From assembly GCA_026387175.1 (NCBI GenBank), contig JAPLME010000012.1, forward strand, positions 5,849 through 69,848: 64,000 nt of DNA, in the 5' to 3' direction. The position numbers and the translations under genes are program-made. Source of the stretch: Candidatus Omnitrophota bacterium (GTDB lineage: Bacteria > Omnitrophota > Gorgyraeia > 2-01-FULL-45-10). The notes under the pieces were generated by a model. The model made no database searches and was not told the DNA's origin. It was given only the letters and a program-made list of their open reading frames with translations. This document shows positions 14,899 to 48,828 of this stretch, one piece after another; positions within the stretch are counted from its first letter, which is position 1; each line of letters opens with the position of its first letter.

Positions 14899-15774
14899 TC
14901 AAGGCTTTTTCGTGTTAAGCATATCCAGTATGCGGTTCATATCATCGGTCGAATAGTATTCTATCTGGATAACTCCTCGTTTTTTACCGTGGGTTATGCG
15001 GACGCGCGTCCCGAATAGCTGCTGCAACTGGCTCTCAATATCTATTATGCTCTGATCCTTCCTTATCTCCACCGCAGGCTTAGCCCCGCTCATCCTGCGG
15101 GCAACCAGGCATTCGGTCTCTCTGACCGAAAGGCCTTTTTTAACTATCAGGTTGCAGACCCTCAGCTGATCTGTTTCCGCCGGAAGCGACAGGATCGCTT
15201 TAGCGTGCCCGGCAGTTATAATGTTCTTTGAAATATAGTCCTGTATCTTCTTCGGCAAGCCCAATAGCCTTATAGTATTAGCTATTGTCGAGCGGTCCTT
15301 GCCGAGCGCTGTGGCGATCTTCTCCTGCGTGAAATTAAAATCCGTGATGAGTTTCTGGAAAGCGAATGCCTCTTCTACGGGATTTAACTCTTCGCGCTGT
15401 ATATTCTCTATAAGCGAAATCTCCACCATATCGATATCGGTGACATTCCTCACTATAGCGGGTATCTTCTCTATCCCTATCGCCCGCACCGCCCTGAGAC
15501 GCCTCTCTCCCGCTATCAGTTCATATCCATCCGCTGTCTTCCTGACCAGGACGGGCTGGATAACCCCTTTTTCTTTGATAGAGCTTATAAGCTCGTTTAA
15601 TTTTTCCTGATTAAAATCCGTACGAGGCTGATATTTATTAGTTGTGATCCGCGCAGTATCTATATGCAGGATCTGTTCATTGCCTGACTGCTTCAGATTG
15701 GCAGAAGATGCTGATACAACTGCAGTCGGCGTCAATAGCGCATCTAAACCCCGGCCCAATGCTCTCTTTTCCAT
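14899..15774 (-). CDS. parB: Chromosome partitioning protein ParB/Spo0J
   Basis: GERRLRA ParB box and an HTH region. Confidence 0.85.
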   Translation of the reverse strand: MEKRALGRGLDALLTPTAVVSASSANLKQSGNEQILHIDTARITTNKYQPRTDFNQEKLNELISSIKEKGVIQPVLVRKTADGYELIAGERRLRAVRAIGIEKIPAIVRNVTDIDMVEISLIENIQREELNPVEEAFAFQKLITDFNFTQEKIATALGKDRSTIANTIRLLGLPKKIQDYISKNIITAGHAKAILSLPAETDQLRVCNLIVKKGLSVRETECLVARRMSGAKPAVEIRKDQSIIDIESQLQQLFGTRVRITHGKKRGVIQIEYYSTDDMNRILDMLNTKKP

Positions 15775-16601
15775 TATTTAACCTCCGCTTCACTAATATT
15801 CTGCAAGTTATTGCTACTATTGAAGTTATCTTTCATTTCTTTCTCAACGCCTAACAATTCATTTACAAAATCCTGATATTTCTGGGCACCAATAGAATGC
15901 TTATCATAAAGCGCTATTGGTTTGCCAAAACCAGGCGCTTCAGTAAGCTTAACATTTCTTGGTATAACAGTATTATAGACCTTGCCTTTGAAAAAATTCC
16001 TCGCTTCATTAATCACTTCATTTGTTAAATTTGTCCTGAAATCTGCCATTGTAAGCAGAACACCTTCGATATTTAAAGCAGAATTTATGTTTTCCTTAAC
16101 AAGGTTTATTGTATTAACTAACTGGCTGAGGCCCTCCAAGGCATAATATTCACATTGTACCGGTATCAGGACAGAATCTGCTGCAGCAAGCGCATTTATC
16201 GTTAAAAGTCCAAGCGATGGAGGACAGTCTATTATTATGAAATCATATTCGGGGAGTATAGCCGCTATTGCTTTTTTCAGCTTGTATTCTCGCCCCATTA
16301 TACCTACAAGCTCTACTTCCGCGCCGGTTAAACTCAATGTGGAAGGGATAATTGAAAAATGATCTATACCACTGCTTATTATAATAGATCTGGGGTCAGC
16401 ATCTTCGATAAGCATTTCATATACACTTGCTTTGATATTATGCTTATTTATACCGAGACCGCTGGTGGCATTACCTTGGGGATCTATATCTATAAGTAGG
16501 GTTCTTTTGCCTGAAAAGGCTAAAAATGTGGCAAGATTAATAGCAGTTGTCGTCTTCCCGACACCGCCTTTTTGATTGCATATAGCGATTGTTCTAGACA
16601 T
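15774..16601 (-). CDS. parA: Chromosome partitioning ATPase ParA/Soj
   Basis: Deviant Walker A KGGVGKTTTAINLA. Confidence 0.85.
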   Translation of the reverse strand: MSRTIAICNQKGGVGKTTTAINLATFLAFSGKRTLLIDIDPQGNATSGLGINKHNIKASVYEMLIEDADPRSIIISSGIDHFSIIPSTLSLTGAEVELVGIMGREYKLKKAIAAILPEYDFIIIDCPPSLGLLTINALAAADSVLIPVQCEYYALEGLSQLVNTINLVKENINSALNIEGVLLTMADFRTNLTNEVINEARNFFKGKVYNTVIPRNVKLTEAPGFGKPIALYDKHSIGAQKYQDFVNELLGVEKEMKDNFNSSNNLQNISEAEVK

Positions 16602-16702
16602 TCGTATTAATTTTCCACGTGGAACAATAATAACTTATTGGAAATTTTTATACTCTATTTCTCAAAAGTCTACACTATATTAGCTAAAAAGTCAAGGTTA
16701 TG

Positions 16703-18280
16703 CTAACTATTCTTAGCTAACGAGGCCTGCTCGGTTATTGTTAATAAAGTGTTAACAACCCAATATAAAACAAGCCCCGATGGCATACTGTAAAATATAA
16801 AGCCGAATACTATCGGCATGATAATCAACATCATCTTTTGCTGCTCTTTTTGCTCAGCCGTAACGGCACTGCCCATCGTCTTAGTGGAGATCTTCTGCTG
16901 CATAACCATGGCCGCTACCATTATGATAGGAAGAATATTTATGCTATTGCCGATTAAGGGCAGAGTAAAGGGCAGCCTGACCGCATCCGGGGAGGACAGA
17001 TCTCTTATCCAGAAGAAACTTGCATTACGCAGCTCTATGGATTTCATCAGCGCTGAATACAAAGCTATGAATATCGGCATCTGGAGCAGTATTGGCAGAC
17101 AGCCGCTCAATGGGTTAATCTTATATTTCTTATATAACTCCATTATCGCCTTATTCAATTTATCCGGGCTATCCTTATACTGCTTCTTCAGCTGTTCCAT
17201 TTGAGGATGTAATTCTTGCATCTTCTGCATGGACTTAAAGCTTTTTACAGTGAGGGGGAATAGAATGATATTCAAAAACACCGACAGCAATATTATCGAA
17301 AATCCCCAGCTGCGTGTTACAAGATGAAAAAATCCCATTACAGTTATCATTACTTTGCTTATTCCGCCGAAGAATCCATAATTAACCGTTGTCTCAAGCC
17401 CATAATTCAGTTCCTTCAATGCGGGTATACTGCTTGGCCCTGCATATAGAACAAACTTATTATCTATGAAAGAATTTGGCTGAATAGTAACAGCATCTGT
17501 ATCTATCCCCATCACCAGGGCGCCGCTTTTACCCTCGCTATAAAATTGGGATTTGGTGGATATGAATGGTTTCAGCACGAGCGAAAAATATTTATTTTTA
17601 AGAGTTGACCAGCCTACGATCCCTAAATTAATTATACGCTGGCCCGGCTTCGGCCTTTTAAAGCCCAGTGTCTTACCGTTTATATCAGCAGTGACTTCAA
17701 CAAATCTCTTATCCTGATTATTAACTTCGGATATGCCGGCGCCTCCTATTATCCTATAACTAAATTGTTTTGACGATCCCGAGATATTTTTTACTAAAAT
17801 GTCTAAACCTATGCCGTGCTTAGACTTATATAATGTGTACCTTTTTGTTATTTCAAGATCGCCCGTTCTAAGAATATAAGTCACCGTCTCTCCGGAGACC
17901 TGTGATGAGTAAAGAGCATTATCTATATCGGTATTAGTTACGCTACTGATATTTAGCAAGTATTCTGCCGGGTTAGTTAATTTTACCAAATCTAAGTTTT
18001 CAGTTGAATTAGATGCTTTAAAGTCTTTAAGCCTGATCTTCTTTATCGCGCCGCCTATATTACTGAATGTCAATATGTAGGTGCCGGTTTCGGCTTCGAG
18101 CTCTTTTTCCTCGACGCTAGGAGTAACTTGCTGTATAATTCCGGCATCTTTGGCAGGTTCTGCCGCTACCGGACTGGCTGCTTCGCGTGGCGGCACAGTA
18201 ACTGGTTTGGGCGATAGAAATTGGAAGGTCACAACGATAAGAACCGATAGTGCTATGGCTAATATCAGCCTTTTTTCCAT
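16703..18280 (-). CDS. yidC: Membrane protein insertase YidC
   Basis: Signal-anchor, large periplasmic domain and a 5-TM C-terminal core; gene order yidC-yidD-rnpA-rpmH. Confidence 0.85.
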   Translation of the reverse strand: MEKRLILAIALSVLIVVTFQFLSPKPVTVPPREAASPVAAEPAKDAGIIQQVTPSVEEKELEAETGTYILTFSNIGGAIKKIRLKDFKASNSTENLDLVKLTNPAEYLLNISSVTNTDIDNALYSSQVSGETVTYILRTGDLEITKRYTLYKSKHGIGLDILVKNISGSSKQFSYRIIGGAGISEVNNQDKRFVEVTADINGKTLGFKRPKPGQRIINLGIVGWSTLKNKYFSLVLKPFISTKSQFYSEGKSGALVMGIDTDAVTIQPNSFIDNKFVLYAGPSSIPALKELNYGLETTVNYGFFGGISKVMITVMGFFHLVTRSWGFSIILLSVFLNIILFPLTVKSFKSMQKMQELHPQMEQLKKQYKDSPDKLNKAIMELYKKYKINPLSGCLPILLQMPIFIALYSALMKSIELRNASFFWIRDLSSPDAVRLPFTLPLIGNSINILPIIMVAAMVMQQKISTKTMGSAVTAEQKEQQKMMLIIMPIVFGFIFYSMPSGLVLYWVVNTLLTITEQASLAKNS

Positions 18281-18286
18281 TTTAGC

Positions 18287-18547
18287 TTACCTTACTGGAT
18301 CGTAGCCGCCTTGTGAAAATGGATGACAGCGCAGTATCCTTTTTAATCCCTTAAATGATCCGGAGAATATTCCGTATTTTTCGATCGCTTCTATAGTATA
18401 TTCTGAGCAGGATGGGTAGAACCTGCAACATTGTATGTTCATGGGCGACAAATACTTACGATAAAACTTCAAAATAGAAATTGCGCCGATTTTTAAATAT
18501 CTCATAGCAGAATCCCGGCTTCTTTCGCCAATGCTAAAAAAACACAA
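18287..18547 (-). CDS. yidD: Membrane protein insertion efficiency factor YidD
   Basis: [10 protein letters not shown]...HPGGYDP-like motif ([14 protein letters not shown]...[12 protein letters not shown]). Confidence 0.8.
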
Positions 18548-18861
18548 CCGATCTCCTTACGCAAAAACTTCTTTTCGGGGCCCTTCCTTACGATCACTAC
18601 CATATCAAAGGCCGGTTTGAAGATCGGTTTATTTTTTCTATAAACTTCGCGGAAAGACCTGCGGATGCGATTGCGAATGCAGGCTCGCCTTACATTCGCG
18701 GAACTTATCGAAAAACCCATACGGTTGTAGGCTAAGCCGTTGGGCATTATCGACAGAATGAAACCGTTTTTTCTGAAAGACCTGCCTTTTTTATATACCG
18801 CCCTGAACTCCCTCGACTTTAAAATATGCTCTTTTTTCCTGAAAGTCTCGTCGGAGATCAT
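18502..18861 (-). CDS. rnpA: Ribonuclease P protein component
   Basis: Basic protein with the RNR motif region ([11 protein letters not shown]). Confidence 0.8.
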
Positions 18862-18995
18862 ACGGTAAGCTTATGGCGGCCTTTTCTCCTTCGTCTCTTT
18901 AATACTTCCCTGCCCCAGCGGTCCTTCATTCTTTTTCTAAATCCGTGTTTTTTCTTTCTCTTGATATTGGATTTGGGCTTTAGGCCATATTTCAT
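18858..18995 (-). CDS. rpmH: 50S ribosomal protein L34 (not in the ORF track because it is under 60 aa)
   Basis: Manual minus-strand translation: [45 protein letters not shown]. The stop TGA overlaps the rnpA ATG. Confidence 0.8.
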   Translation of the reverse strand: MKYGLKPKSNIKRKKKHGFRKRMKDRWGREVLKRRRRKGRHKLTV

Positions 18996-19153
18996 TTTAC
19001 GTTCCTCTCTTTCGCTGTTTTGATGTTGTTAGATTATATCATAAAGGCCCGCCCAGTCAATCATTTAATTTCACTTTATCAATTTTCCTTGCAATGCGGG
19101 CCATACTTTTATATAATAGCGCATGCTGTGCCGTATTAACGGTTAAAAACCAT

Positions 19154-19216
19154 TGTGCACAACATGTGCATAACTTGTTATTTTGTGTGGGACTGGCTTA
19201 ATATTATTGTGGATAA
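19154..19216. promoter_or_regulatory. Replication origin region: DnaA-box cluster upstream of dnaA
   Basis: Perfect TGTGGATAA at 19208-19216, plus variants TGTGCATAA (19165-19173) and TGTGCACAA (19154-19162), with AT-rich tracts at 19060-19120. Classic rpmH/dnaA divergent arrangement. Confidence 0.6.
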
Positions 19217-19234
19217 CTGCAGATTGGCGGACAA

Positions 19235-20608
19235 ATGAGCGATTCCGGCAGCGTCTGGACAAAAGCACTGGATATTATCAGAAAAGAGCTCGATAATGAG
19301 CAGACGTTCAATATCTGGTTCAGCCCTATCAAGTGTTCCTCGTGTACGTCGGAGAAAATGATCCTGGAGGTGCCAAACAAGTTTTTCCAGGACTGGTTAT
19401 TGAACAGATATATGGATGTCCTGAATTCCGGCGCCAGGAAAGCCTGCGGCGCGGAAATCAAGATAGAATTTATCTTCGGTGCCGACGAGTCGGCCAACAC
19501 GGAAATCGAGGCGGCAAAGAAAGAGGAGACGAAAAAAGAAGTTAAAGGTTTTTGGCCGTTTTCGAAACACGCTCCGGACCACGCCAGAGAACTGGGGCTC
19601 GACCCCAAGTATACATTCGATAGTTTTGTTATCGGGTCTTCCAACCGCTTTGCCCATGCCGCGGCCATGGCGGTCTCCGATTCTCCGGCGAAAGCCTATA
19701 ATCCTCTCTTTATATACGGCGGCACAGGGCTGGGTAAGACGCATCTTATGCACGCCATAGGGGATCGTGTTCTCGCGAAGAGCCCAAAGACAAAAGTCCT
19801 GTACATTTCGAGCGAGGACTTCACCAACCAGATGATAAGCGCCATCCAAAACCGATCGATGATCAAGTTCAGGGAGAAGTACCGCAGCGTCGATATCCTT
19901 CTGATAGACGATGTGCATTTCATCGCCGGCAAAGATTCCACGCAGGAAGAGTTCTTCCATACTTTTAACACTTTATACGACGCGCACAAACAGATCGTCG
20001 TGACGAGCGACCGCCCCCCGAAGGAGATAAACAAGCTGGAGGAACGGCTCGTATCCAGGTTTTTGTACGGACTCGTGACGGATGTCCAGCCGCCTGATTT
20101 TGAGACGAGGATAGCTATATTAAAGAGGAAGTCCGAAATAGCGGCATTGACTCTGCCTGAAGATGTTTTTTATTTTCTTGCGGAAAAGGTTAAGACCAAT
20201 ATCAGGGAGCTGGAGGGCGCGCTTATACGTGTGGTCGCATATTCGAAGCTTATAGGAAAAGAGGTCTCCGTCGACCTCGCTAAGGAAGTGTTGAAGGACA
20301 TGATCATAGAGGGTGAGAAGAAGATCACCATAGACCTTATACAAAAGAAGGTGAGCGAGTATTTCGATATAAAACTTTCCGATATGAGAGCGAAGAAGCG
20401 CTCGAAGGCAATAGCATACCCGCGTCAGGTGGCGATGTATCTCGCCAGGCAGCTCACTGATTATTCACTTCCGGAGATAGGAGACCAGTTTGGGGGGCGC
20501 GACCATACTACGGTAATACACGCCTGCACTAAAGTGGAAGGTGATTTAAAGAGTAAAGACGGTTTTAAGGTTTTGTTGGGGCGATTAATAGAAAGTATTA
20601 AAGGATAA
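19235..20608 (+). CDS. dnaA: Chromosomal replication initiator protein DnaA
   Basis: AAA+ Walker A GGTGLGKTHL; domain IV DNA-binding region VAMYLARQLT. Confidence 0.95.
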   Translation: MSDSGSVWTKALDIIRKELDNEQTFNIWFSPIKCSSCTSEKMILEVPNKFFQDWLLNRYMDVLNSGARKACGAEIKIEFIFGADESANTEIEAAKKEETKKEVKGFWPFSKHAPDHARELGLDPKYTFDSFVIGSSNRFAHAAAMAVSDSPAKAYNPLFIYGGTGLGKTHLMHAIGDRVLAKSPKTKVLYISSEDFTNQMISAIQNRSMIKFREKYRSVDILLIDDVHFIAGKDSTQEEFFHTFNTLYDAHKQIVVTSDRPPKEINKLEERLVSRFLYGLVTDVQPPDFETRIAILKRKSEIAALTLPEDVFYFLAEKVKTNIRELEGALIRVVAYSKLIGKEVSVDLAKEVLKDMIIEGEKKITIDLIQKKVSEYFDIKLSDMRAKKRSKAIAYPRQVAMYLARQLTDYSLPEIGDQFGGRDHTTVIHACTKVEGDLKSKDGFKVLLGRLIESIKG

Positions 20609-27442: not shown

Positions 27443-27532
27443 GGGGCCATCCCAAAAAGGGACACCCTGCAATCTCAACCCCCGCCCCTTTAAGTTTATT
27501 TATTACAGGGTGTCCCTTTTTGGGATGGCCCC
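27443..27532. repeat. GGGGCCATCC-family palindromic repeat: perfect 27-bp inverted repeat with a ~36-nt loop
   Basis: Left arm ggggccatcccaaaaagggacaccctg; right arm cagggtgtccctttttgggatggcccc. The same terminal motif recurs at 45016, 45575 and 48724. Confidence 0.7.
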
Positions 27533-40487: not shown

Positions 40488-41486
40488 ATGAAGATATCAG
40501 AACTGGCGCGCCTAATCGGCGGCGTTGTCGAAGGCGATGGCAATATTGATATAAAAGGTCTGGGCGGAATAGAATCTGCCAAGGCGGGCGAGCTCACATT
40601 CGCTACAGACGAAGAGAAGCTCTCATATGCCGAGCGCTCGAACGCTTCATGTGTTTTGACCGCTAAAACCGTCAGAAGCTCCACAAAGCCCCTGATAAAG
40701 GTCGATAATCCGAAACTTTCGTTCCTGATCATATATAATACCCTCAATACCCCTGAGCGGAGGGGAGAGTTTCGGCATCCTACGGCTACAGTGGAGAAGT
40801 CCGCGCGGCTCGGGAAGAACGTCTGGATCGGGCCCCATGTTTCGATAGAGGACGGGGTCGAGATAGGCGATAACGCTATAATCGAGTCCAATTCCGCAAT
40901 TAAGAAGAATTGCCGGCTGGGGCCATCCTGCCGGGTCTATCCGAATGTAACATTATATGAAGGTATGGTGCTGGGGCGCAATGTCATACTTCACAGCGGA
41001 GTGGTGGTAGGCGCCGATGGTTTCGGATACGTTAGAGAGAAAGATAAGATATATAAATTTCCTCAAGCCGGGAAGGTTATTATAGGAGATGACGTAGAGA
41101 TAGGCGCCAATACCACCATCGACAGGGGATCCATGAATGATACCGTCATAGGCGCCGGCACTAAGATAGATAACCTGTGCCAGATAGCGCATAACGTCAG
41201 GATAGGCAAGAATACGATAATAGCCGGCCATAGCGGCGTTTCCGGGTCGACCGTGATCGGCGATAACGTCACCATCGCCGGAAAAGTCGGCATAGCCGAT
41301 AACCTTACGATAGGGTCTAACGCGATTGTAGGCGGAGGAACCTCCGTCATCGGGGATATCAGGGAAGGCGAAGTGGTCTGGGGATTTCCCGCAAGACCTA
41401 TACGCGAGATGAAGCGGCAGCTGGCGACCCTCTCATGGCTGACGAAGCATTTTGGGGCTCTTTCCAAACTCCTGCACAAAGAATAA
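40488..41486 (+). CDS. lpxD: UDP-3-O-acylglucosamine N-acyltransferase
   Basis: [12 protein letters not shown] start is typical of LpxD, followed by left-handed beta-helix hexapeptide repeats. The listed ORF from 40362 carries an implausible N-terminal extension. Confidence 0.8.
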
Positions 41487-41539
41487 AAATCTTGCCATGC
41501 GTGGCAGAATAATTATATAATACCGCTGGCAAATTTACC

Positions 41540-41616
41540 GGGGACGTAGTTCAGTTGGTTAGAACGTCAGATTGTCGATCTGAAGGTCGCGGGTTCGACC
41601 CCCGTCGTCCCCGCCA
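41540..41616 (+). tRNA. tRNA-Asp (anticodon GTC)
   Basis: GGGGACGTAGTTCAGTTGGTTAGAACGTCAGATTGTCGATCTGAAGGTCGCGGGTTCGACCCCCGTCGTCCCCGCCA. Confidence 0.8.
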
Positions 41617-41623
41617 CTTTAGG

Positions 41624-41659
41624 AAATGCCTTACAAAATAACTGTAGGGCATTTTTATT
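41624..41659 (+). terminator. Rho-independent terminator-like hairpin after tRNA-Asp
   Basis: aaatgcc-(17 nt)-ggcattt followed by TTTATT. Confidence 0.4.
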
Positions 41660-41660
41660 G

Positions 41661-41788
41661 GTGGCGGGGATATAGGGGGTCGAAGCTCGCGAGCGCCGAC
41701 GAATAGGAGGAAAAGCGCTATGCGCGACAGCGAGCGAGCTGGCTACGCAGGCGAGCTCTGCGAGCCGAAGTAGCCGACCCCCGTCGTC
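41661..41788 (+). repeat. tRNA-linked conserved ~100-nt element, copy 2; bracketed by an inverted and a direct copy of the tRNA-Asp 3' end
   Basis: Left: TGGCGGGGAtataGGGGGTCGAA (reverse complement of TTCGACCCCCGTCGTCCCCGCCA with a 4-nt change). Core nearly identical to copy 1. Right: CGACCCCCGTCGTC (41775-41788). Confidence 0.6.
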
Positions 41789-41942
41789 AAATCCTCTTGA
41801 CTAATCCTAATTCCAAGAGTAGCATATTCTTTAACTGGTTATTAGGCAGTTACTTAAGGAGCCGAAGCGACGTTCGACTCCCCTCGTCCCCGCTGGAGTT
41901 TGACATATGTGCAGAACCCATAATTAGATATCCGAGTTTCTC

Positions 41943-41970
41943 AGCTGCCCCTAAAGGCAGCTTTTTTATT
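41943..41970 (+). terminator. Rho-independent terminator-like hairpin
   Basis: agctgcc-cctaaa-ggcagct followed by TTTTTTATTT. Confidence 0.45.
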
Positions 41971-42049
41971 TCATGGAATAGACGGCACAAAAACGGCACA
42001 GTCTTAAGGGAGGGGTTAAGCCTATCCCCTAGTATCTTTAAAGGATAAA

Positions 42050-42670
42050 ATGAAAACAAGAGATTGGTTAGAAAAAAATAAAATCTTTTTTGAAACCGTT
42101 GCTGCCATAGCCCTCTCGCTCATGGCTTTGTTAGTTTCCTGCACGCAATCCGAAATAGCCAGAAATCAATTAGTCCTTTCTGGAAATCCTATAATTTTAA
42201 TCGAGCCTTCAGACACTGTGAAAGGATCCATCGGTGAATTCAAAATATCCGTTAAAAATATCAGTATGGCAGAACTATACGATATTCGTATTTATGAGGA
42301 TTACTTTGTCACTATGGCACAAGAAAATGGTTCAATTAACTTAGTAAGTGTAGGGGCGTTTATAACTAAACCAAATTTGGTTATCCCACAATTAAAACCG
42401 AATAATAGGGAAGATATTACGATTAATTGTAAATTAATAATTAAAAATATGAAGGAGCTTTACCGCGAACACAAAGGGGTAGAAATGCGAATTGCCCGGA
42501 TAAGAATTAAATATTGCAGAAAACTAGATGGGAAAGAATTTATGCAAACCAAAGCATATATTATTGCGGGACAGGGTGATTTTCTTATTGATTACGATGA
42601 GCGTGGCATAAGAACTCCTATGACTCCCAGTTTTGAGGATATCAAAAATATACTCGGGGCTGAAAATTAG
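42050..42670 (+). CDS. Hypothetical protein: N-terminal single TM anchor plus a ~170-aa soluble domain (AT-rich island gene 1)
   Basis: 206-aa ORF with TM segment IFFETVAAIALSLMALLVS; no recognisable catalytic motif; AT-rich codon usage unlike the flanking core genes. Confidence 0.5.
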   Translation: MKTRDWLEKNKIFFETVAAIALSLMALLVSCTQSEIARNQLVLSGNPIILIEPSDTVKGSIGEFKISVKNISMAELYDIRIYEDYFVTMAQENGSINLVSVGAFITKPNLVIPQLKPNNREDITINCKLIIKNMKELYREHKGVEMRIARIRIKYCRKLDGKEFMQTKAYIIAGQGDFLIDYDERGIRTPMTPSFEDIKNILGAEN

Positions 42671-42748
42671 TGCTATCATTAGAAAAGATAGCACAGTATC
42701 TATTAATGAGTCTTATTACTAAGTCGCATAAGAAAGATAGGAGGAACG

Positions 42749-43843
42749 ATGGCAAAGCTCAATGAGGATATAGAGCAATTAAAGGAAGACCTCGAAGCAG
42801 TTACTGCCGTGGATGATGAAACTTCAAACGAAAATGTTCCCATAAAATATGCAATTAGTTCTTATGGGGCAGATTATCCAGTTGATGGATTGGTTAAAAG
42901 ATTGCAGGCCAAAGATGTTATAATTCCCGAATTTCAAAGAGAATATGTATGGACACTTAGACAAGCATCTAGGTTTATAGAATCCCTTCTTTTGGGTCTT
43001 CCCGTTCCCGGCGTTTTTCTTTCAAAAGAACAAGAAACGGGCAAACTCTTAGTCATCGATGGTCAGCAGAGATTAAAAACATTGCAGTTCTTTTTTGAAG
43101 GCGTTTTTCGTGGAAAAGAATTTCGACTTACTGAAGTACAAGATGAATACAAAGGACGATTGTATAAAGAACTCGAAGACATAGATAAGCGACAATTACA
43201 AAACTCTGTTATTCATGCCACGGTATTAAAACAAGACACCCCAAAGGATGACCAGAGCAGTGTATATCACGTTTTCGAACGATTAAATACGGGCGGGTCT
43301 ATTCTTTACCCACAGGAAATAAGAGCTTGTATATATCATGGGCCCTTTAACAACGTTTTATCCGAAATCAATAACAATACGCACTGGCGAAACATTTTTG
43401 GAAAGATAAATAAACGACTAAAAGACGAAGAATTGCTATTGAGATTCTTCGCTTTATATTATGACAAGGCTACGTATACAACGCCTTTCAAATCTTTTCT
43501 TAACACTTTTATGGAAAGTAACAGAAAAATGGAAAGGTATTCTAAGGCTAATCTTGAAAAACTATTTTCTCCGGCAATGGAAGTGGTATATAAATGTATT
43601 GGCGAGAAAGCATTTAGATTAGATAAAGCTATTAATGCCGCTGTTTTTGAATCAGTAATGGTTGGTCTAGCGACTAGACTAGAGAAAGGAGCTATTAATA
43701 ACGCAACGCAAGTTAAATCAGAATACGAAAAATTAATAAAAATTCCAGATTATTTGGCAGCATGCAAAACAGGAACTTCTGATAAGGGAAAAGTCGAAAA
43801 AAGGCTATCTTTAGCCATTGACGCGTTTAGTCGGATTTCATAA
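42749..43843 (+). CDS. DUF262 (ParB-like / GmrSD N-terminal domain) protein, stand-alone
   Basis: IPEFQREYVWT...RFIESLLLGLPVPGVFL...LLVIDGQQRLKTL and FERLNTGG match DUF262 signature motifs. Good RBS AGGAGG 4 nt upstream. Confidence 0.8.
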   Translation: MAKLNEDIEQLKEDLEAVTAVDDETSNENVPIKYAISSYGADYPVDGLVKRLQAKDVIIPEFQREYVWTLRQASRFIESLLLGLPVPGVFLSKEQETGKLLVIDGQQRLKTLQFFFEGVFRGKEFRLTEVQDEYKGRLYKELEDIDKRQLQNSVIHATVLKQDTPKDDQSSVYHVFERLNTGGSILYPQEIRACIYHGPFNNVLSEINNNTHWRNIFGKINKRLKDEELLLRFFALYYDKATYTTPFKSFLNTFMESNRKMERYSKANLEKLFSPAMEVVYKCIGEKAFRLDKAINAAVFESVMVGLATRLEKGAINNATQVKSEYEKLIKIPDYLAACKTGTSDKGKVEKRLSLAIDAFSRIS

Positions 43844-44301
43844 TGCTTAGTCATGTTACTTCGGAAATAGACAAGATAGACGCTCTTTTTAAGTTTGAAA
43901 ACGACATCATTAATGATGAAGTAAGAGCTTATTGGGCCGAATATCTTTGTGTGCGAGTTGCTGGATTAATAGAGGCCGTTCTAAGAATAATACTATTTTA
44001 TTATGCTAAGAATAAATCGCATGAGAACGTTGCGCGTTACGTATCCAAGAAGGTAGAGGGTGTTACAAATCTTAATTCAGAGAAAATTGAAAACTTGTTA
44101 GGAGATTTTAGCGAGGTTTGGCAAGAGCGCTACGTTCAAAATATTACGGATTCTCAAAAAGCAGCAATCGGCAATATTTACATAAATAGAAATAGAGTTG
44201 GTCACGGACGCAATTCCGAATTATCTTATTATAGAGTAAAAGAATATTATAAGGAAATAAAAGGTGCGTTATTAGCTATTTTGAAAATCGTTGAAGCATA
44301 A
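43843..44301 (+). CDS. HEPN-domain protein (Rx4H motif, RiboL-PSP/Swt1-like flavour)
   Basis: 152-aa all-helical ORF with NRNRVGHG (R-x4-H) near the C-terminal third. The start ATG overlaps the DUF262 stop by 1 nt (ATAATG). Confidence 0.55.
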   Translation: MLSHVTSEIDKIDALFKFENDIINDEVRAYWAEYLCVRVAGLIEAVLRIILFYYAKNKSHENVARYVSKKVEGVTNLNSEKIENLLGDFSEVWQERYVQNITDSQKAAIGNIYINRNRVGHGRNSELSYYRVKEYYKEIKGALLAILKIVEA

Positions 44302-44320
44302 AAACTTTTACTTATCCAGA

Positions 44321-44400
44321 AAAATAGGAAAATAGGGGGGGCCGGTCCAGAAAGTACCACTCTATAAGCTAATGGGCTGGCACCAAAAGAGCCGTCCCCG
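44321..44400. repeat. Divergent copy of the GGGGCCATCC-family repeat with an aaaataggaaaatagggg leader
   Basis: aaaataggaaaataggggggGCCGGTCCAGAAAG...GGGCTGGCACCAAAAG. The 18-mer leader recurs at 45488-45505. Confidence 0.4.
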
Positions 44401-44467
44401 TAAATACGTATGAGATCCGATCCTCATAATATTTTTTACAAGTATCAGATTTTCAAGGAGGTTTGTT

Positions 44468-45013
44468 ATGTCGCTTTTAGGAGAAGAGTTAGTAGAAGAA
44501 TGGTTAAATAGAAAAGGCTATTTCACAATCCGCGGTGCAAAAATCGGAAACGGAGAAATAGACTTGCTTGCTGTTAAATATACAAGCAAAGGAATTGACT
44601 GTTGGCATTATGAGGTTCAGGCCTCCCTTCGACCAGTAAGTTATATTTGTTCAGCGCCTCAAGAGCTTCGTAAATTAGGTAAGTCCGCTCACAATGCTAA
44701 GAAACGTCCTATGTCTGAAATCGAGACTGCGGCGAAAGAATGGATTTATAAAAAGTATTTAGATCCAAAGAAAGAAAATATTAGAAGGAGTCTTTGGCCA
44801 ATGAAATGGAGCTTTGGTCTTATTGTGGGGAATGTTAAACACTCAGAAGAATTGGAAATTATTGCTAAAAATAATATCACCATTGTTCGAATTGCGGATA
44901 TTATTAAAAACCTTTCGCCAAAATCTCAAACTAATAGCAAGGATTTTAGAGTTGGAGCAGCAAGTGGTGCTGATTTAATTGATTTGGTTTTTGCTCACTC
45001 CCAACTTGCATAA
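44468..45013 (+). CDS. Hypothetical protein with possible PD-(D/E)xK nuclease-like N-terminal motif
   Basis: EELVEEWLNRKGYFTIRGAKIGNGEIDLLAVKY...WHYEVQAS resembles an E...D...E-x-K/Q restriction-endonuclease-fold core. Weak; strong RBS AAGGAGG. Confidence 0.4.
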   Translation: MSLLGEELVEEWLNRKGYFTIRGAKIGNGEIDLLAVKYTSKGIDCWHYEVQASLRPVSYICSAPQELRKLGKSAHNAKKRPMSEIETAAKEWIYKKYLDPKKENIRRSLWPMKWSFGLIVGNVKHSEELEIIAKNNITIVRIADIIKNLSPKSQTNSKDFRVGAASGADLIDLVFAHSQLA

Positions 45014-45015
45014 GC

Positions 45016-45088
45016 GGGGCCATCCCACAAAGTGCCACCCTGCATGACAAGAGAAGATCCTAGGCTGTCCCCAAAACAGGATGGCACC
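45016..45088. repeat. GGGGCCATCC-family palindromic repeat (MITE/REP-like), copy B
   Basis: ggggccatcccacaaagtgccaccctgcatgacaagagaagatcctaggctgtccccaaaacaggatggcacc. Terminal 10-nt arms are inverted complements. Confidence 0.6.
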
Positions 45089-45115
45089 AAATATTCTTAG
45101 TGAAGGAGAAATGAG

Positions 45116-45469
45116 ATGTTTGAACATAAGCATGAAAAAATAGCGTCGGTTTCAGTCTTCATAAAAAGGCTGGTCGGGTATATCGCAGCCGCTATTCTAT
45201 TGATTTTACTCTCCTTATTTGTTGGAATCGCCGGATATCATTGGCTAGCCGGCTTTAGCTGGATCGATTCGCTCTTAAACGCATCTATGATCTTAGGCGG
45301 TATGGGGCCGGTGAACTTGCTGACCAATCTCGGCGCAAAAGTCTTTGCGTCCCTGTACGCGCTTTTTAGCGGACTTGTATTCATTGCGGTAATGGGAATA
45401 GTTTTCTCTCCGATCATACATAGAATGCTTCATACATTTCATATCGACGACAAAGATTTACATAAATGA
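45116..45469 (+). CDS. Small hypothetical membrane protein (3 predicted TM helices) flanked by repeat copies
   Basis: 117-aa ORF with hydrophobic segments YIAAAILLILLSLFVGIAGY, MILGGMGPVNLL, LYALFSGLVFIAVMGIVF; RBS GGAG. Confidence 0.45.
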   Translation: MFEHKHEKIASVSVFIKRLVGYIAAAILLILLSLFVGIAGYHWLAGFSWIDSLLNASMILGGMGPVNLLTNLGAKVFASLYALFSGLVFIAVMGIVFSPIIHRMLHTFHIDDKDLHK

Positions 45470-45487
45470 TAACCTTGAGATTCGGTC

Positions 45488-45648
45488 AAAATAGGAAAAT
45501 AGGGGACAGCGCCCTATTTCCGAAAGTAATGAGGCCATCTCATAAGGGGACACCCTGCATAATAAGCAAGAACCGGGGCCATCCCACAAAGGGACGCCCT
45601 GCATGATAAGAGAAGCTTCTAGGCTGTCCCCAAATAGGATGGCCCCAA
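45488..45648. repeat. GGGGCCATCC-family repeat, copy C (leader 18-mer, a partial unit and a full unit in tandem)
   Basis: aaaataggaaaataggggacagcgccctattt... gaggccatctcataaggggacaccctgcat... ggggccatcccacaaagggacgccctgcatgataagagaagcttctaggctgtccccaaataggatggcccc (full unit 45575-45646). Confidence 0.6.
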
Positions 45649-45685
45649 AACACCAGAATACAAATCATATGAAAGAAGTGGCGCA

Positions 45686-48600
45686 ATGAAGAATTTGCTT
45701 TCCATGATCATAATTATTTCAGTAATCTCTCTTATCAATCGACCAACCATGGCGGACTCGTGGAACTTTGCCGTATTTGGCGATGACCGTAGTGACAATA
45801 CGACTGGCTCCGCAGTAAATACAACCGCTGTTACTGCTATCGCAACTGATATTACAAACAACAGGAATGCATCCTTTGCTATAGTCCTCGGCGATCTTGT
45901 ACATGGAAAAGAAAATGATACTCCCATTGCCACCCAGTTCAATACCTTCAAAACTGCTGCGACAAGCGGCGGATTTAAGGTAGCAGGCGAAGCCGGCGCT
46001 GGGGTTCCATATTATCCCGTCCGTGGTAATCACGACAACGATGTTGTCGATCCTTTAGGCGTAGCATGGAAGGCGGCATTCCCCACATTGCCTCAAAATG
46101 GACCTACCACAAATACATCCGGAGGCGGCAATAGCGAAGTGGGGATGACGTATAGTTTCACTAATGGCAATTCCCTGTTTTTAAGTTTAGATGAATATGT
46201 GAACACAGACACTTATCCAAATCAAGTCAATCAGACTTGGGTGAATACTCAATTAAGCAGCTCTACTGCCGCTCACGTGTTTGCTTATGGGCATTTGCCT
46301 GCATATTATACGGTTGCCGGGGAATCCCTGTCTATTTATGCGGCTGCAAGAGATGCTTTTCTGACCAGTCTTTATGATAAAAACGGCCAAATCTATTTCG
46401 CAGGGCACCAACATTTTAGTGCTATCGCAAGTGCGAATATAGACGGGAACGCATCAAAGGTGTTCTATCCGATCATTGATGGCGCAGGTGGCGCTCCAGG
46501 AACTCTATGGGACGGCACATACACAGATCCTAATGTAACAGGTCTCTACTACAATAGCACTAGCAGCACTCCTTACTATTACACATATTCAATAGTTACC
46601 GTTGATGACGACCTTGTATGGTTAAGGTTGTATGGGACGACAAGCGTGACGACGCCGACTTGGCTGAACCTATATGCGCTTGTTATCAGTGGAACTCTTA
46701 CAACTGATACTAATACTCTGATAAGCGACGTTGCGAATTATTCAACGATTGATTTTAAGCAAGCTTCTAACGGTACCTATTCGAAAGTAATCATCGGCAC
46801 AGGCAACATAGTAAAAAGTGGCGCTGCTGAACTGACCCTGAGCGGCGCCAATACCTACACAGGAGCCACGACAGTCAACGCCGGAACGCTCAAAGCCGGA
46901 GTGGCAACTCACGCCTTTGGTGTGGGCTCAGCCGTGACGGTTGCGACCGGAGGGACACTGGATTTGAACGGCTATTCCCAGACTATCGGTTCACTCGCAG
47001 GTGGCGGCACAGTCATTAACGGTGATACAATCGATACGATCTTGACGACAGGCGATACTGCCTCGACCACATTTTTCGGGATTATCCAGGACGGTACTCA
47101 CAAATTGGGATTCACCAAGGCTGGAACTGGGACACTTACTCTTACCGGCGCCAACGCCTACACCGGTACTACAACGATCAGCGCTGGTACGCTGCAAATA
47201 GGAAACGCCAGTGCTCTCGGTACAGGAGCCGTTACGAACAATGCTACGTTGGATGTCGGCACGACCAATCTTGCAGTTACCGGCGCCTATAAACAAAACG
47301 CAGGTTCAACTTTAAAACTTACCGCAAATTCTTCCTCCAGTTTTGGCAAGATCACGTCCGGCGTTGCTGCGACGGTAGATGCCGGAAGCACTCTTAACGT
47401 TACGGTCGGAGGCTTTATTCCGAATAACACAACTCTTACAATTATAGATACAGGAGGAAAGGGTATAGGGAGCGTCCCAACTACAATTATTTCAAGTAAT
47501 TCTTTCATGACATTCTCCATCGAGAACTCCGGTAACAACCTTGTTCTTACCGTGAACCGTTCCGGAAGTAACAGCTTCAGCGGTGTCGCAGCCAATTCCA
47601 ATGCGGCTACTGTCGGCGCCGCTCTCGATAATATCACCAGTCCGTCCGCAGACATGCAGAGCGTTCTTACGGCGCTCGGCAATTTATCGCCGAGCCAGGT
47701 CGCATCTTCTTTAAATAGCATGACTCCTACCGTTGACGGCGCGGTGACACAATCGGCTCTATCCATGCTTAGCCAGATAACGGGCTCGACCGTAACGCAT
47801 CTTGAAAATGTAAGCACGGGAGGTGTAACCGGTATCTCAACAGGCGACGATTATTTACATGGTTTAGATATTTGGGCGCAGGGCTTAGGTGATTATGCTC
47901 ATCAGGATCCCCGCGGGTTTAGTAACGGTTATAATGCGACGTCGTGGGGCGTTTCGGGCGGCGCGGATATCCCGCTTAATATAGGCGATGATTTGCTGCG
48001 TATGGGTATAGGTTCCGGTTATGGCCAGACCTTTGTCCGCTCAAAGGATAGTTCCGGAAGGAATGATATCGACAGCATTCCGGGAACATTATATTGTGCT
48101 TATGAAAATAATAAATATCCTCTTTATTTGGATATCACTTTCACTTTTATATATAATCTCTATCAAGCCTCTCGCGCAGTTACGGTCGGCACGTTAACCG
48201 AGCGTACCGCCAATGCCGATTATAACGGCCAGCAGTATTCGGGCTATTTTGAGGGCGGCTACAGCTTTTTCTATAAGAATCTCCGCATGACGCCTCTCGT
48301 TTCATTTCAATACATGCATCTGCATACAGGCAGTTACACCGAAACCGGCGCCGACGCGCTTAACTTAAGTGTCAATAGCCAGGATTATGACATGGCCATG
48401 ACGGGTTTCGGCGCTAAAGCAGCGTATCCATTAGAGTTTAAATACGGGACCATCATGCCGGACCTGCATGCCAAGTGGCTCTATGATTGGGCCGGCGATA
48501 ATCAGGCTGCAACTGCGTCTTTTGCCGGTGGCGGAACAGCATTCGGTACAAACGGTTTTAGGGCTGCGCGATCGGGATATGATATGGGCACAAAGATTAG

Positions 48601-48706
48601 CTTTAAGACAAAATACAATATTTCGCTCGATTTGGATTACGATTTTCTTCTCAAGGCTGATTATTATGAGCATTACGGAAGCGTGACTGTAAGATACGGC
48701 TTCTAA
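45686..48706 (+). CDS. Autotransporter-like outer-membrane protein: signal peptide, calcineurin-like metallophosphoesterase domain, beta-helical passenger repeats and a C-terminal beta-barrel
   Basis: Signal peptide MKNLLSMIIIISVISLINRPTMA. MPP motifs FGDDRSD, GDLVHG, GNHDN, GH...GHQH. Repeats of the GANTYTGATTVNAGTL type. C-terminus ...VTVRYGF (aromatic terminal residue). Confidence 0.7.
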   Translation: MKNLLSMIIIISVISLINRPTMADSWNFAVFGDDRSDNTTGSAVNTTAVTAIATDITNNRNASFAIVLGDLVHGKENDTPIATQFNTFKTAATSGGFKVAGEAGAGVPYYPVRGNHDNDVVDPLGVAWKAAFPTLPQNGPTTNTSGGGNSEVGMTYSFTNGNSLFLSLDEYVNTDTYPNQVNQTWVNTQLSSSTAAHVFAYGHLPAYYTVAGESLSIYAAARDAFLTSLYDKNGQIYFAGHQHFSAIASANIDGNASKVFYPIIDGAGGAPGTLWDGTYTDPNVTGLYYNSTSSTPYYYTYSIVTVDDDLVWLRLYGTTSVTTPTWLNLYALVISGTLTTDTNTLISDVANYSTIDFKQASNGTYSKVIIGTGNIVKSGAAELTLSGANTYTGATTVNAGTLKAGVATHAFGVGSAVTVATGGTLDLNGYSQTIGSLAGGGTVINGDTIDTILTTGDTASTTFFGIIQDGTHKLGFTKAGTGTLTLTGANAYTGTTTISAGTLQIGNASALGTGAVTNNATLDVGTTNLAVTGAYKQNAGSTLKLTANSSSSFGKITSGVAATVDAGSTLNVTVGGFIPNNTTLTIIDTGGKGIGSVPTTIISSNSFMTFSIENSGNNLVLTVNRSGSNSFSGVAANSNAATVGAALDNITSPSADMQSVLTALGNLSPSQVASSLNSMTPTVDGAVTQSALSMLSQITGSTVTHLENVSTGGVTGISTGDDYLHGLDIWAQGLGDYAHQDPRGFSNGYNATSWGVSGGADIPLNIGDDLLRMGIGSGYGQTFVRSKDSSGRNDIDSIPGTLYCAYENNKYPLYLDITFTFIYNLYQASRAVTVGTLTERTANADYNGQQYSGYFEGGYSFFYKNLRMTPLVSFQYMHLHTGSYTETGADALNLSVNSQDYDMAMTGFGAKAAYPLEFKYGTIMPDLHAKWLYDWAGDNQAATASFAGGGTAFGTNGFRAARSGYDMGTKISFKTKYNISLDLDYDFLLKADYYEHYGSVTVRYGF

Positions 48707-48723
48707 ACTCGATACGAATAACC

Positions 48724-48760
48724 GGGGCCATCCCACAAAGGGACACCCTGCATGACTAGA
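48724..48760. repeat. GGGGCCATCC-family repeat, copy D (left half only)
   Basis: ggggccatcccacaaagggacaccctgcatgactaga immediately after the autotransporter stop. Confidence 0.5.
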
Positions 48761-48828
48761 GAATATGCTAAATCAATAACGGAGGTGTAAGATGAAGAAG
48801 TTATATCTATCCGATACTGACCGTAAGA

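Follow-up and report, generated by a model that had tools for sequence, protein, structure and literature searches.

The segment 42749..44301 of the window, by which we mean the whole stretch of 64,000 nucleotides that was analysed, is very probably a PD-T4-2-type anti-phage cassette of two genes, carried by a decayed, acquired island in a Candidatus Omnitrophica genome, with a DUF262 protein (A) as the putative sensor and a HEPN protein (B) as the predicted RNase effector. The assignment is drawn from profiles, Pfam families, gene geometry and homologs. The features that carry it are the following:

42749..43843, + strand: gene A, PD-T4-2A / NsnA-like DUF262 protein of 364 aa (profile matches, motifs)
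43843..44301, + strand: gene B, PD-T4-2B-like HEPN protein of 152 aa, RiboL-PSP family (PF18735; Rx4H)
42737..44308, + strand: conserved two-gene cassette (blastn against the closest relatives, L006 and L007, and their gene content)

The DUF262 and HEPN proteins

The N-terminal part of A is a DUF262 NTPase domain of the ParB/Srx fold (Pfam PF03235, 1e-28), with the motifs FQR at residue 62, DGQQR at residue 104, and FERLNTGG. The protein matches the PADLOC model PD-T4-2_A (PDLC04027) at 5.1e-66, residues 49-361 aligning with positions 44-362 of 363, and the NsnA model at 7.8e-74, residues 17-361 aligning with positions 28-380 of 385. Its PADLOC matches to SspE, HEC-05 and HEC-06 are restricted to the N-terminal region, and no Pfam match to the DUF1524 nuclease domain was found in A. 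The AF2 model shows an all-alpha C-terminal half. The HEPN protein of the window gives a weak PADLOC match to positions 229-311 of PD-T4-2_A; a HEPN-like C-terminal domain in A was nevertheless rejected, since hhalign of a HEPN profile against the A profile returned a probability of 1.2%. Two homologs on E. coli plasmids (L003 and L004) score lower than A against PD-T4-2_A, and the matches in Peduovirus phages are weak (28% identity over 62% of the query).

The B protein matches the Pfam families PF18735, PF18737 and HEPN_Swt1, and carries the Rx4H motif (R116...H121) together with a conserved E44; it is predicted to be an RNase effector. The only solved structure found by PDB sequence searches with A and B concerns the N-terminal DUF262 region of BrxU. 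Both domain calls of the initial annotation, DUF262 and Rx4H HEPN, are thus upheld by PF03235 with DGQQR at 104 and by PF18735 with Rx4H at 116, and so is the translational coupling that it proposed: the stop codon of A overlaps the start codon of B by 1 nt (TAATG), the two same-strand genes spanning 1,553 bp.

Conservation of the two-gene unit

The species-representative genomes hold 592 relatives of the DUF262 component, and we analysed the best 80 of these loci, which are spread over many bacterial and archaeal phyla. A HEPN gene lies directly downstream on the same strand in 73 of the 80 (91%). Among the 72 pairs detected by phmmer the genes overlap by 4 bp in 41 cases and by 1 bp in 8. 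In this set of 73, DGxQR is present in every A protein and Rx4H in 69 of the B proteins. The pair occurs in chromosomes and on plasmids, all five plasmid loci carrying both genes. In Akkermansia phage Chambord, the ORF that follows the DUF262 gene was not detected by the HEPN profile. Furthermore, A and B co-diverge (pairwise identities, r=0.71; Mantel test, 0 of 999 permutations) and are inherited as a unit, which answers the check on co-conservation suggested at the outset. The HEPN partner is missing for the remaining 7 of the best 80 DUF262 homologs, so A can act with other partners or alone.

The limits of the unit are given by its closest relatives, L006 and L007. Their DNA homology with the window (79-81% nucleotide identity by blastn) covers exactly 42737..44308, and the conserved unit is therefore the two genes alone. 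At this distance of about 80% both ORFs are intact and of identical lengths, 364 and 152 aa, which points to purifying selection.

The initial annotation had instead proposed an abortive-infection module of three genes, without counterpart among named systems, in which a membrane protein (the 206-aa ORF at 42050..42670) precedes the DUF262 and HEPN genes. The three genes do share a strand and an AT-rich composition, and the gap between the membrane ORF and the DUF262 gene is only 78 bp. Yet a homolog of this ORF is present in none of the 80 related loci, nor was any found by tblastn in plasmids or phages; the homology with the closest relatives starts 12 bp ahead of the DUF262 start codon, leaving the ORF outside, and in these relatives the 338-405 bp that precede the DUF262 gene contain no gene call. 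Since the two-gene pair is, in addition, a named system, a three-gene module is extremely unlikely, and the membrane protein has to be dropped from the unit. We retain the cassette of two genes.

Relation to PD-T4-2 and other known systems

The cloned PD-T4-2 originates from E. coli ECOR65 and consists of two CDSs within 1,540 bp, its deletion in native ECOR65 restored T4 plaquing, and the published top Pfam call for PD-T4-2B is RiboL-PSP HEPN, PF18735 (Vassallo et al. 2022, PMC9519451). A RiboL-PSP-HEPN in 'operon with ParB' had already been tabulated in 2013 (PMC3710099), and the system was termed 'largely uncharacterized' in 2025. The locus described here has the same layout, i.e. a co-directional DUF262 protein of about 350 aa devoid of DUF1524 and then a small RiboL-PSP HEPN, over a similar span (1,553 bp, compared with 1,540 bp in ECOR65), with PF03235 in A and PF18735, PF18737 and HEPN_Swt1 in B, and with A aligning to the whole of the PD-T4-2_A model. 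It differs by its host, an uncultured Omnitrophica, phage resistance having been demonstrated for the E. coli system alone, and by its B protein, which is too divergent for the PD-T4-2_B models and is linked to them only via homologs.

Indeed, the B protein of the window matches neither of the two PADLOC PD-T4-2_B models at E<=1, and an automated PADLOC run would therefore probably miss the system at this locus. On the other hand, 14 of the 74 aligned HEPN partners match PD-T4-2_B (best 2.4e-9), it is the best PADLOC match for 6 of the 10 nearest homologs of B, and one protein (P0126) that is 35% identical to B matches it at 3.5e-8. The models appear narrow. The Enterobacterales and 168-aa HEPN matches give no PD-T4-2_B hit. 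The suggestion that the pair lies outside described systems does not survive these comparisons, A matching PD-T4-2_A directly and B joining through its nearest homologs; a DUF262 protein with a RiboL-PSP HEPN is PD-T4-2. The likely defence role proposed for it gains from the same identification, by the PD-T4-2_A match and by the T4 plaquing of the ECOR65 deletion.

The second relationship of A is with Menshen (NsnA-NsnB-NsnC; Millman 2022). NsnA consists of a ParB-DUF262 domain and a C-terminal 'ParBDB' domain, and is a proposed DNA sensor driving an RNase effector (PMC12065111). The homology of A to NsnA extends along the whole protein, and A presumably shares this architecture. However, the cassette has neither the NsnB ABC-ATPase nor the inPIN-nuclease NsnC, and a HEPN gene lies directly downstream of A; none of the five ORFs analysed gave a PADLOC match to NsnB or NsnC, and no ATPase ORF is present.

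Other systems are more distant. In contrast to the proteins of the GmrSD/BrxU/SspE/DndI group, A is without the DUF1524 His-Me nuclease domain and is shorter (364 aa against about 560-820 aa), and the effector is a separate HEPN, predicted to be an RNase. PD-lambda-5 (Vassallo 2022) is likewise a validated defence system that combines ParB-like and HEPN modules, but it requires a methyltransferase, of which there is none in the island, and its ParB and HEPN are listed for one component. The HepT/MntA (HEPN-MNT) type VII toxin-antitoxin pairs have an MNT nucleotidyltransferase as partner, whereas the partner here is an upstream DUF262 protein and the HEPN is of the RiboL-PSP subfamily, PF18735; no NTase domain was found in the DUF262 protein or in the 181-aa protein encoded downstream of the cassette.

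An addiction role of the toxin-antitoxin kind could still be imagined for the pair, the HEPN protein being the toxin and the DUF262 protein its neutraliser, with stabilisation of mobile DNA as the primary function and defence as a side effect at most. We consider this unlikely, because deleting PD-T4-2 from native E. coli restores T4 plaquing (PMC9519451) and because A, a conserved 364-aa protein of the NTPase/DNA-binding type with invariant catalytic motifs, does not resemble a simple antitoxin. We keep to the anti-phage reading. Addiction and defence roles of such a pair can coexist.

A is related to BrxU, SspE and DndI in structure and sequence, which could also be taken to indicate a DNA-targeting system akin to type IV restriction, where A reads modified phage DNA and the HEPN protein is a non-catalytic adaptor or a DNase. 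T4 DNA carries glucosyl-hmC. PD-T4-2 was selected on T4 (PMC9519451), which would suit such an activity. However, no DUF1524, HNH or other DNase domain is found in A or B, 69 of 73 partners retain the Rx4H RNase motif, and every Rx4H HEPN domain that has been characterised is an RNase (PMC3710099). A DNA-targeting system seems quite improbable on these grounds, and an RNase effector remains our preferred role for B.

The island and its neighbouring genes

The cassette lies in an AT-rich block downstream of a tRNA gene, with the following surroundings:

41540..41616, + strand: tRNA-Asp(GTC), left landmark of the island (ARAGORN; Rfam RF00005, 72.9 bits)
41660..41893, no strand: GC-rich scar zone with three tRNA-Asp 3'-end-like fragments (repeat search and sequence inspection)
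41943..41962, + strand: terminator-like hairpin and T-run, at the left edge of the AT-rich block
42050..42670, + strand: 206-aa orphan ORF, island cargo outside the cassette (GC3 0.319)
44468..45013, + strand: 181-aa ORF, island cargo unlinked to the cassette (GC3 0.286)
45012..45095, no strand: palindromic repeat copy, at the right edge of the AT-rich block
45116..45469, + strand: 117-aa multi-TM ORF, host-like composition

The block measures about 3.1 kb (about 41,900–45,010), with a GC content of 0.36, and on its left edge GC drops from 0.545 to 0.37 across 41700-42099. GC3 is 0.29–0.32 in its genes against 0.574±0.060 in core genes, and this distance (0.29 vs 0.574) indicates a foreign origin, in agreement with the initial annotation, which had recognised an AT-rich, horizontally acquired island next to tRNA-Asp. 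Its right end, set there at 45,650, has to be drawn back to about 45,010: the 117-aa TM gene has a GC3 of 0.475, against 0.467 for the adjacent host autotransporter gene, and is probably outside the acquired block. Other low-GC patches of the window were rejected as islands, as they hold housekeeping genes (ParA, YidC, a TPR protein and a thioredoxin-like protein).

Three fragments resembling the tRNA-Asp 3' end, one inverted (about 41660-41684) and two direct (41772-41793, 68%; 41872-41893, 91%), are probably leftovers of earlier integration events. They do mark the left side, as had been proposed; no copy marks the right end of the block, and none occurs elsewhere in the window (<=3 mismatches over 25 nt). 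Of the signs of a tRNA-integrated island, flanking tRNA 3'-end direct repeats were not found, all fragments lying left of the block, and no integrase ORF is present; the absence of integrase and methyltransferase from the ORFs of the island had been correctly noted. The locus is most aptly seen as the small, decayed remnant of a horizontally acquired island beside tRNA-Asp. In relatives of LpxD (58-69% identity) the DEAD helicase and LpxD genes are partly still adjacent, and none of tRNA-Asp, the autotransporter or the island genes lies downstream, a synteny consistent with an accessory island but short of a true empty-site comparison.

The palindromic repeat thought to separate the island genes is a dispersed host element. 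Further copies lie at 45574-45634 and 48723-48763, with partial ones near tRNA-Glu (27443-27471 and 27506-27532), and no copy is present between the 206-aa membrane ORF and the DUF262 gene. An Rfam scan of 41300-45800 found the tRNA alone.

Decay of the island raises the question of whether the cassette itself is a non-functional, unexpressed relic. The absence of an integrase, the several tRNA-end scars and a promoter scan at background level (13 found vs 11.7 expected) would fit this. Nevertheless, both ORFs are intact with all their catalytic motifs, and the retention of the 364- and 152-aa lengths in relatives at about 80% nucleotide identity points to purifying selection, which makes a dead remnant very improbable. 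The PD-T4-2-type cassette is thus taken as intact within a decayed surrounding.

The 206-aa, 181-aa and 117-aa TM ORFs are neighbours unrelated to the cassette. The 206-aa ORF has no significant match in Pfam, PADLOC, NCBIfam or PHROG; of the single-pass membrane protein first described, the N-terminal hydrophobic segment stands, but it ends in L-V-S-C and by inspection reads as a lipobox. The 181-aa ORF belongs to a small, uncharacterised family (375 representative clusters at E<=1e-3), and has no Pfam family, no PDB sequence match and no homolog in the 80 related loci. The PD-(D/E)xK-like character ascribed to it is plausible from the invariant E6/D32/E49-x-Q51 pattern of the family alignment, its match to UPF0102 being weak and sub-threshold. 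No significant family match was found for the 117-aa TM ORF. It is a long shot that the block is a mini defence island with new cargo, where the 181-aa protein would be a stand-alone PD-(D/E)xK-type defence nuclease and the 206-aa protein a surface-exclusion factor, and where a HEPN branch missed by the PD-T4-2_B models would leave PD-T4-2 under-called in environmental phyla.

A model for the cassette and its significance

By analogy with GmrSD, BrxU, SspE and NsnA, A may be a sensor or regulator that binds invading, possibly modified, phage DNA, with NTP binding or hydrolysis as the switch. B would be a HEPN RNase effector whose activity is held in check, probably through complex formation with A; once activated it would cut RNA (tRNA, rRNA or mRNA), so that translation and phage growth stop. 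The cassette could then be viewed as a Menshen-like sensor wired straight to a HEPN RNase, without an ATPase transducer. The sensor and effector roles, the RNA target and the A-B complex are here what we infer.

In conclusion, the locus carries little weight as a discovery, since the pair represents an anti-phage system that already has a name and experimental validation and is found very widely. It does document PD-T4-2-type cassettes in Omnitrophica. For much of the family the PADLOC models of the B component are too restrictive, and automated surveys are therefore expected to miss such instances. A unit of strictly two genes, partners that diverge together, DGxQR and Rx4H motifs retained almost throughout and the homology of A to NsnA along its entire length offer a comparative basis for mechanistic work on PD-T4-2.

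A PD-T4-2-type pair in the island

The DUF262 protein (A) and the HEPN protein (B) encoded to the right of tRNA-Asp are a pair of the known PD-T4-2 type, a two-gene anti-phage system of E. coli ECOR65 whose entry reads 'DUF262, HEPN' (Vassallo et al. 2022, PMC9519451).

Genes of the region (window positions)
41540..41616, tRNA-Asp(GTC), called by ARAGORN and Rfam
42050..42670, + strand, 206-aa ORF, GC3 0.319
42749..43843, + strand, 364-aa DUF262 ORF (A), GC3 0.290
43843..44301, + strand, 152-aa HEPN ORF (B), GC3 0.288
44468..45013, + strand, 181-aa ORF, GC3 0.286
45116..45469, + strand, 117-aa ORF, GC3 0.475

In ECOR65 the two CDSs, RCO39066.1 and an unannotated ORF downstream of it, span 1,540 bp (QOYX01000002:338334-339873; PMC9519451), against 1,553 bp for A and B in the window. 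The top HHpred match of PD-T4-2A is PF03235, and PD-T4-2B matches, in this order, PF18735, PF18737 and HEPN_Swt1 (PMC9519451), three families that the window HEPN protein matches as well. When PD-T4-2 was deleted from ECOR65, T4 regained plaquing on this strain (PMC9519451). The system is listed under both DUF262 and PF18735 in a 2023 review, a 'Ribo L-PSP-HEPN ... operon with ParB' is on record in a 2013 HEPN survey, and the 2025 Menshen analysis describes PD-T4-2 as still largely uncharacterised. The initial annotation, which had proposed an abortive-infection-type module, was thus right in kind about a defence role; the system it took to be unnamed has a name (PMC9519451).

The two genes are co-conserved. 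Among species-representative genomes we found 592 relatives of A, the best 80 of which are spread over many phyla of Bacteria and Archaea; a same-strand HEPN homolog lies directly downstream at 72 of these 80 loci by single-sequence phmmer and at 73 with a profile. Of the 72 phmmer-found pairs, 41 have genes that overlap by 4 bp and eight have a 1-bp overlap. On plasmids, five homologs were inspected (from Hymenobacter, Kocuria, Phaeobacter and, in two cases, E. coli), and a small HEPN gene stands directly 3' of the DUF262 gene in every one. The DGxQR motif is present in 73/73 A proteins and Rx4H in 69/73 B proteins. B evolves faster, with a mean pairwise identity of 0.32 versus 0.49 for A, and the pairwise identities of the two proteins are correlated (r=0.71; Mantel, 0/999 permutations); the two genes are therefore passed on together, with no reshuffling of partners.

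The HEPN partner is missing at seven of the 80 loci (L011, L014, L016, L025, L029, L052 and L055), where other genes follow the DUF262 homolog, such as 428-aa ORFs at L029 and L052 and a 929-aa ORF at L014; these seven loci may represent effector swaps on the same DUF262 sensor. In the temperate Akkermansia phage Chambord (L168, 851..3661), a DNA methyltransferase gene is followed by a DUF262 homolog (31.6% identity) and a 178-aa ORF that gave no match to the HEPN profile; this locus may be nearer to the PD-lambda-5-type ParB/HEPN plus methyltransferase arrangement.

The window HEPN protein did not reach a match with the PADLOC PD-T4-2_B models, which appear narrow: all 74 HEPN partners found beside A homologs match PF18735, and only 14/74 match PD-T4-2_B. 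PD-T4-2_B is nevertheless the best PADLOC match, over nearly the full length, in six of the ten nearest homologs of the window protein, and one HEPN homolog 35% identical to it (P0126) matches at 3.5e-8. At the level of sequence, it is these close homologs that link the window protein to PD-T4-2_B.

Neighbouring genes and the origin of the island

The initial annotation had counted a membrane protein, the 206-aa ORF, as a third component. Homologs of the 206-aa, 181-aa and 117-aa ORFs are found at 0/80 of the best DUF262 loci. In the closest relatives (81-89% protein identity), the genes downstream of the pair differ from those of the window, the 338-405 bp that precede the DUF262 gene hold no gene call, and blastn homology is limited to 42737..44308, that is, from 12 bp before the start codon of A to 7 bp after the stop codon of B. 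A three-gene module is thus unsupported, and the membrane protein and the rest of the neighbours are cargo unrelated to the pair. No homolog of the orphan 206-aa ORF turned up in any library or collection tried, and the L-V-S-C at the end of its N-terminal hydrophobic segment reads as a lipoprotein lipobox, not as the simple anchor of a single-pass membrane protein.

The 181-aa ORF is a member of a real but small, uncharacterised protein family (375 representative clusters at E<=1e-3), mostly stand-alone and of 165-190 aa, with no Pfam family and no PDB relative in sequence searches. E6, W12, T20, E30, D32, H47, E49, P56, K96, W114 and E128 are invariant and V50 and Q51 nearly so. The pattern E6/D32/E49-x-Q51 (D...ExQ) fits a PD-(D/E)xK core, as the initial annotation had it, but the profile backing is limited to a sub-threshold match to UPF0102; the family could be an unrecognised nuclease.

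The five ORFs of the initial annotation were all recovered, on the + strand, and so was the AT-rich stretch: GC content drops to the right of tRNA-Asp from about 0.50-0.58 to 0.32-0.40 across ~41,900 to ~45,010. Over the rest of the window, the GC3 of 24 long ORFs averages 0.574 ± 0.060 and is never below 0.449. The composition of the island strongly indicates that it was horizontally acquired. The proposed boundaries must be moved, as the GC3 of the 117-aa gene (0.475) is close to that of the adjacent autotransporter gene (0.467): the foreign block stops at ~45,010 and contains four genes, not five. The autotransporter itself (1,006 aa, 45686..48706, + strand) carries a calcineurin-like metallophosphoesterase passenger domain, which is unusual for an Omnitrophica bacterium, together with PATR repeats and a C-terminal autotransporter beta-domain. 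When synteny was anchored on LpxD, the relatives (58-69% identity) kept the DEAD helicase-LpxD adjacency in part, but neither tRNA-Asp nor the autotransporter nor any gene of the island was present in them. This fits an accessory island, in a comparison that offers no true empty site.

tRNA-Asp 3'-end-like fragments and palindromic repeat copies (window positions)
about 41660-41684, tRNA-Asp fragment, inverted
41772-41793, tRNA-Asp fragment, direct, 68%
41872-41893, tRNA-Asp fragment, direct, 91%
27443-27471, palindromic repeat
27506-27532, palindromic repeat
45012-45095, palindromic repeat
45574-45634, palindromic repeat
48723-48763, palindromic repeat

The tRNA-Asp 3' end recurs in three degenerate copies within 280 bp (41617..41900), to the right of the tRNA and ahead of the AT-rich block, in a GC-rich and partly palindromic segment (e.g. 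CTCGCGAG at about 41686). A search of the window found no such copy to the right of the block, and no integrase is present among the island ORFs. These fragments suggest that DNA integrated at tRNA-Asp repeatedly and then decayed, and are probably stacked att-site scars of several integration and excision events.

The palindromic repeat is GC-rich and intergenic, with the core GGGGCCATCCCACAAAG.G.C.CCCTGCATGA ... GGATGGCCCC, and is found after several genes. Since copies also occur after the autotransporter gene (48723-48763) and beside tRNA-Glu (27443-27532), it is a dispersed REP- or MITE-like element of the host genome and not an island feature; the copies at 45012-45095 and 45574-45634 are real, but no copy lies in the gap between the 206-aa ORF and the DUF262 gene.

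A switch in the sign of the GC skew was noted near 19-20 kb, at the cumulative skew minimum (region about 15,700-20,000), beside genes for a ParA/Soj-type ATPase (15774..16601, - strand) and YidC (16703..18280, - strand); the window probably contains the chromosomal replication origin.

Possible mechanism

What the data show is which domains A and B carry, that the catalytic motifs of both are intact, and that the two genes are tightly coupled and co-inherited. By analogy with GmrSD, BrxU, SspE and NsnA, A would sense invading DNA, with NTP binding or hydrolysis as a possible switch. B would be an RNase effector, probably complexed with A and inactive until triggered, whose activation would lead to translation arrest. 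NsnA, the infection sensor of Menshen, combines a ParB-DUF262 domain with a ParBDB DNA-binding domain (2025 Menshen analysis); the present pair would resemble a Menshen-type sensor coupled straight to a HEPN RNase, with the ATPase transducer of Menshen left out. A HEPN-like fold in the C-terminal half of A, which would have pointed to a pseudo-dimer lock, was rejected (hhalign probability 1.2%).

The pair could otherwise act purely as an addiction module, restrict DNA in a type IV-like manner or be a dead remnant. All three are less likely, given that PD-T4-2 has a deletion phenotype in its native strain, that no DNase domain is present, that Rx4H is conserved and that the ORFs are intact in diverged relatives.

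With the pair assigned to PD-T4-2, the remaining value of this locus lies in the biochemistry of the family and in how narrow the current models of its B component evidently are.
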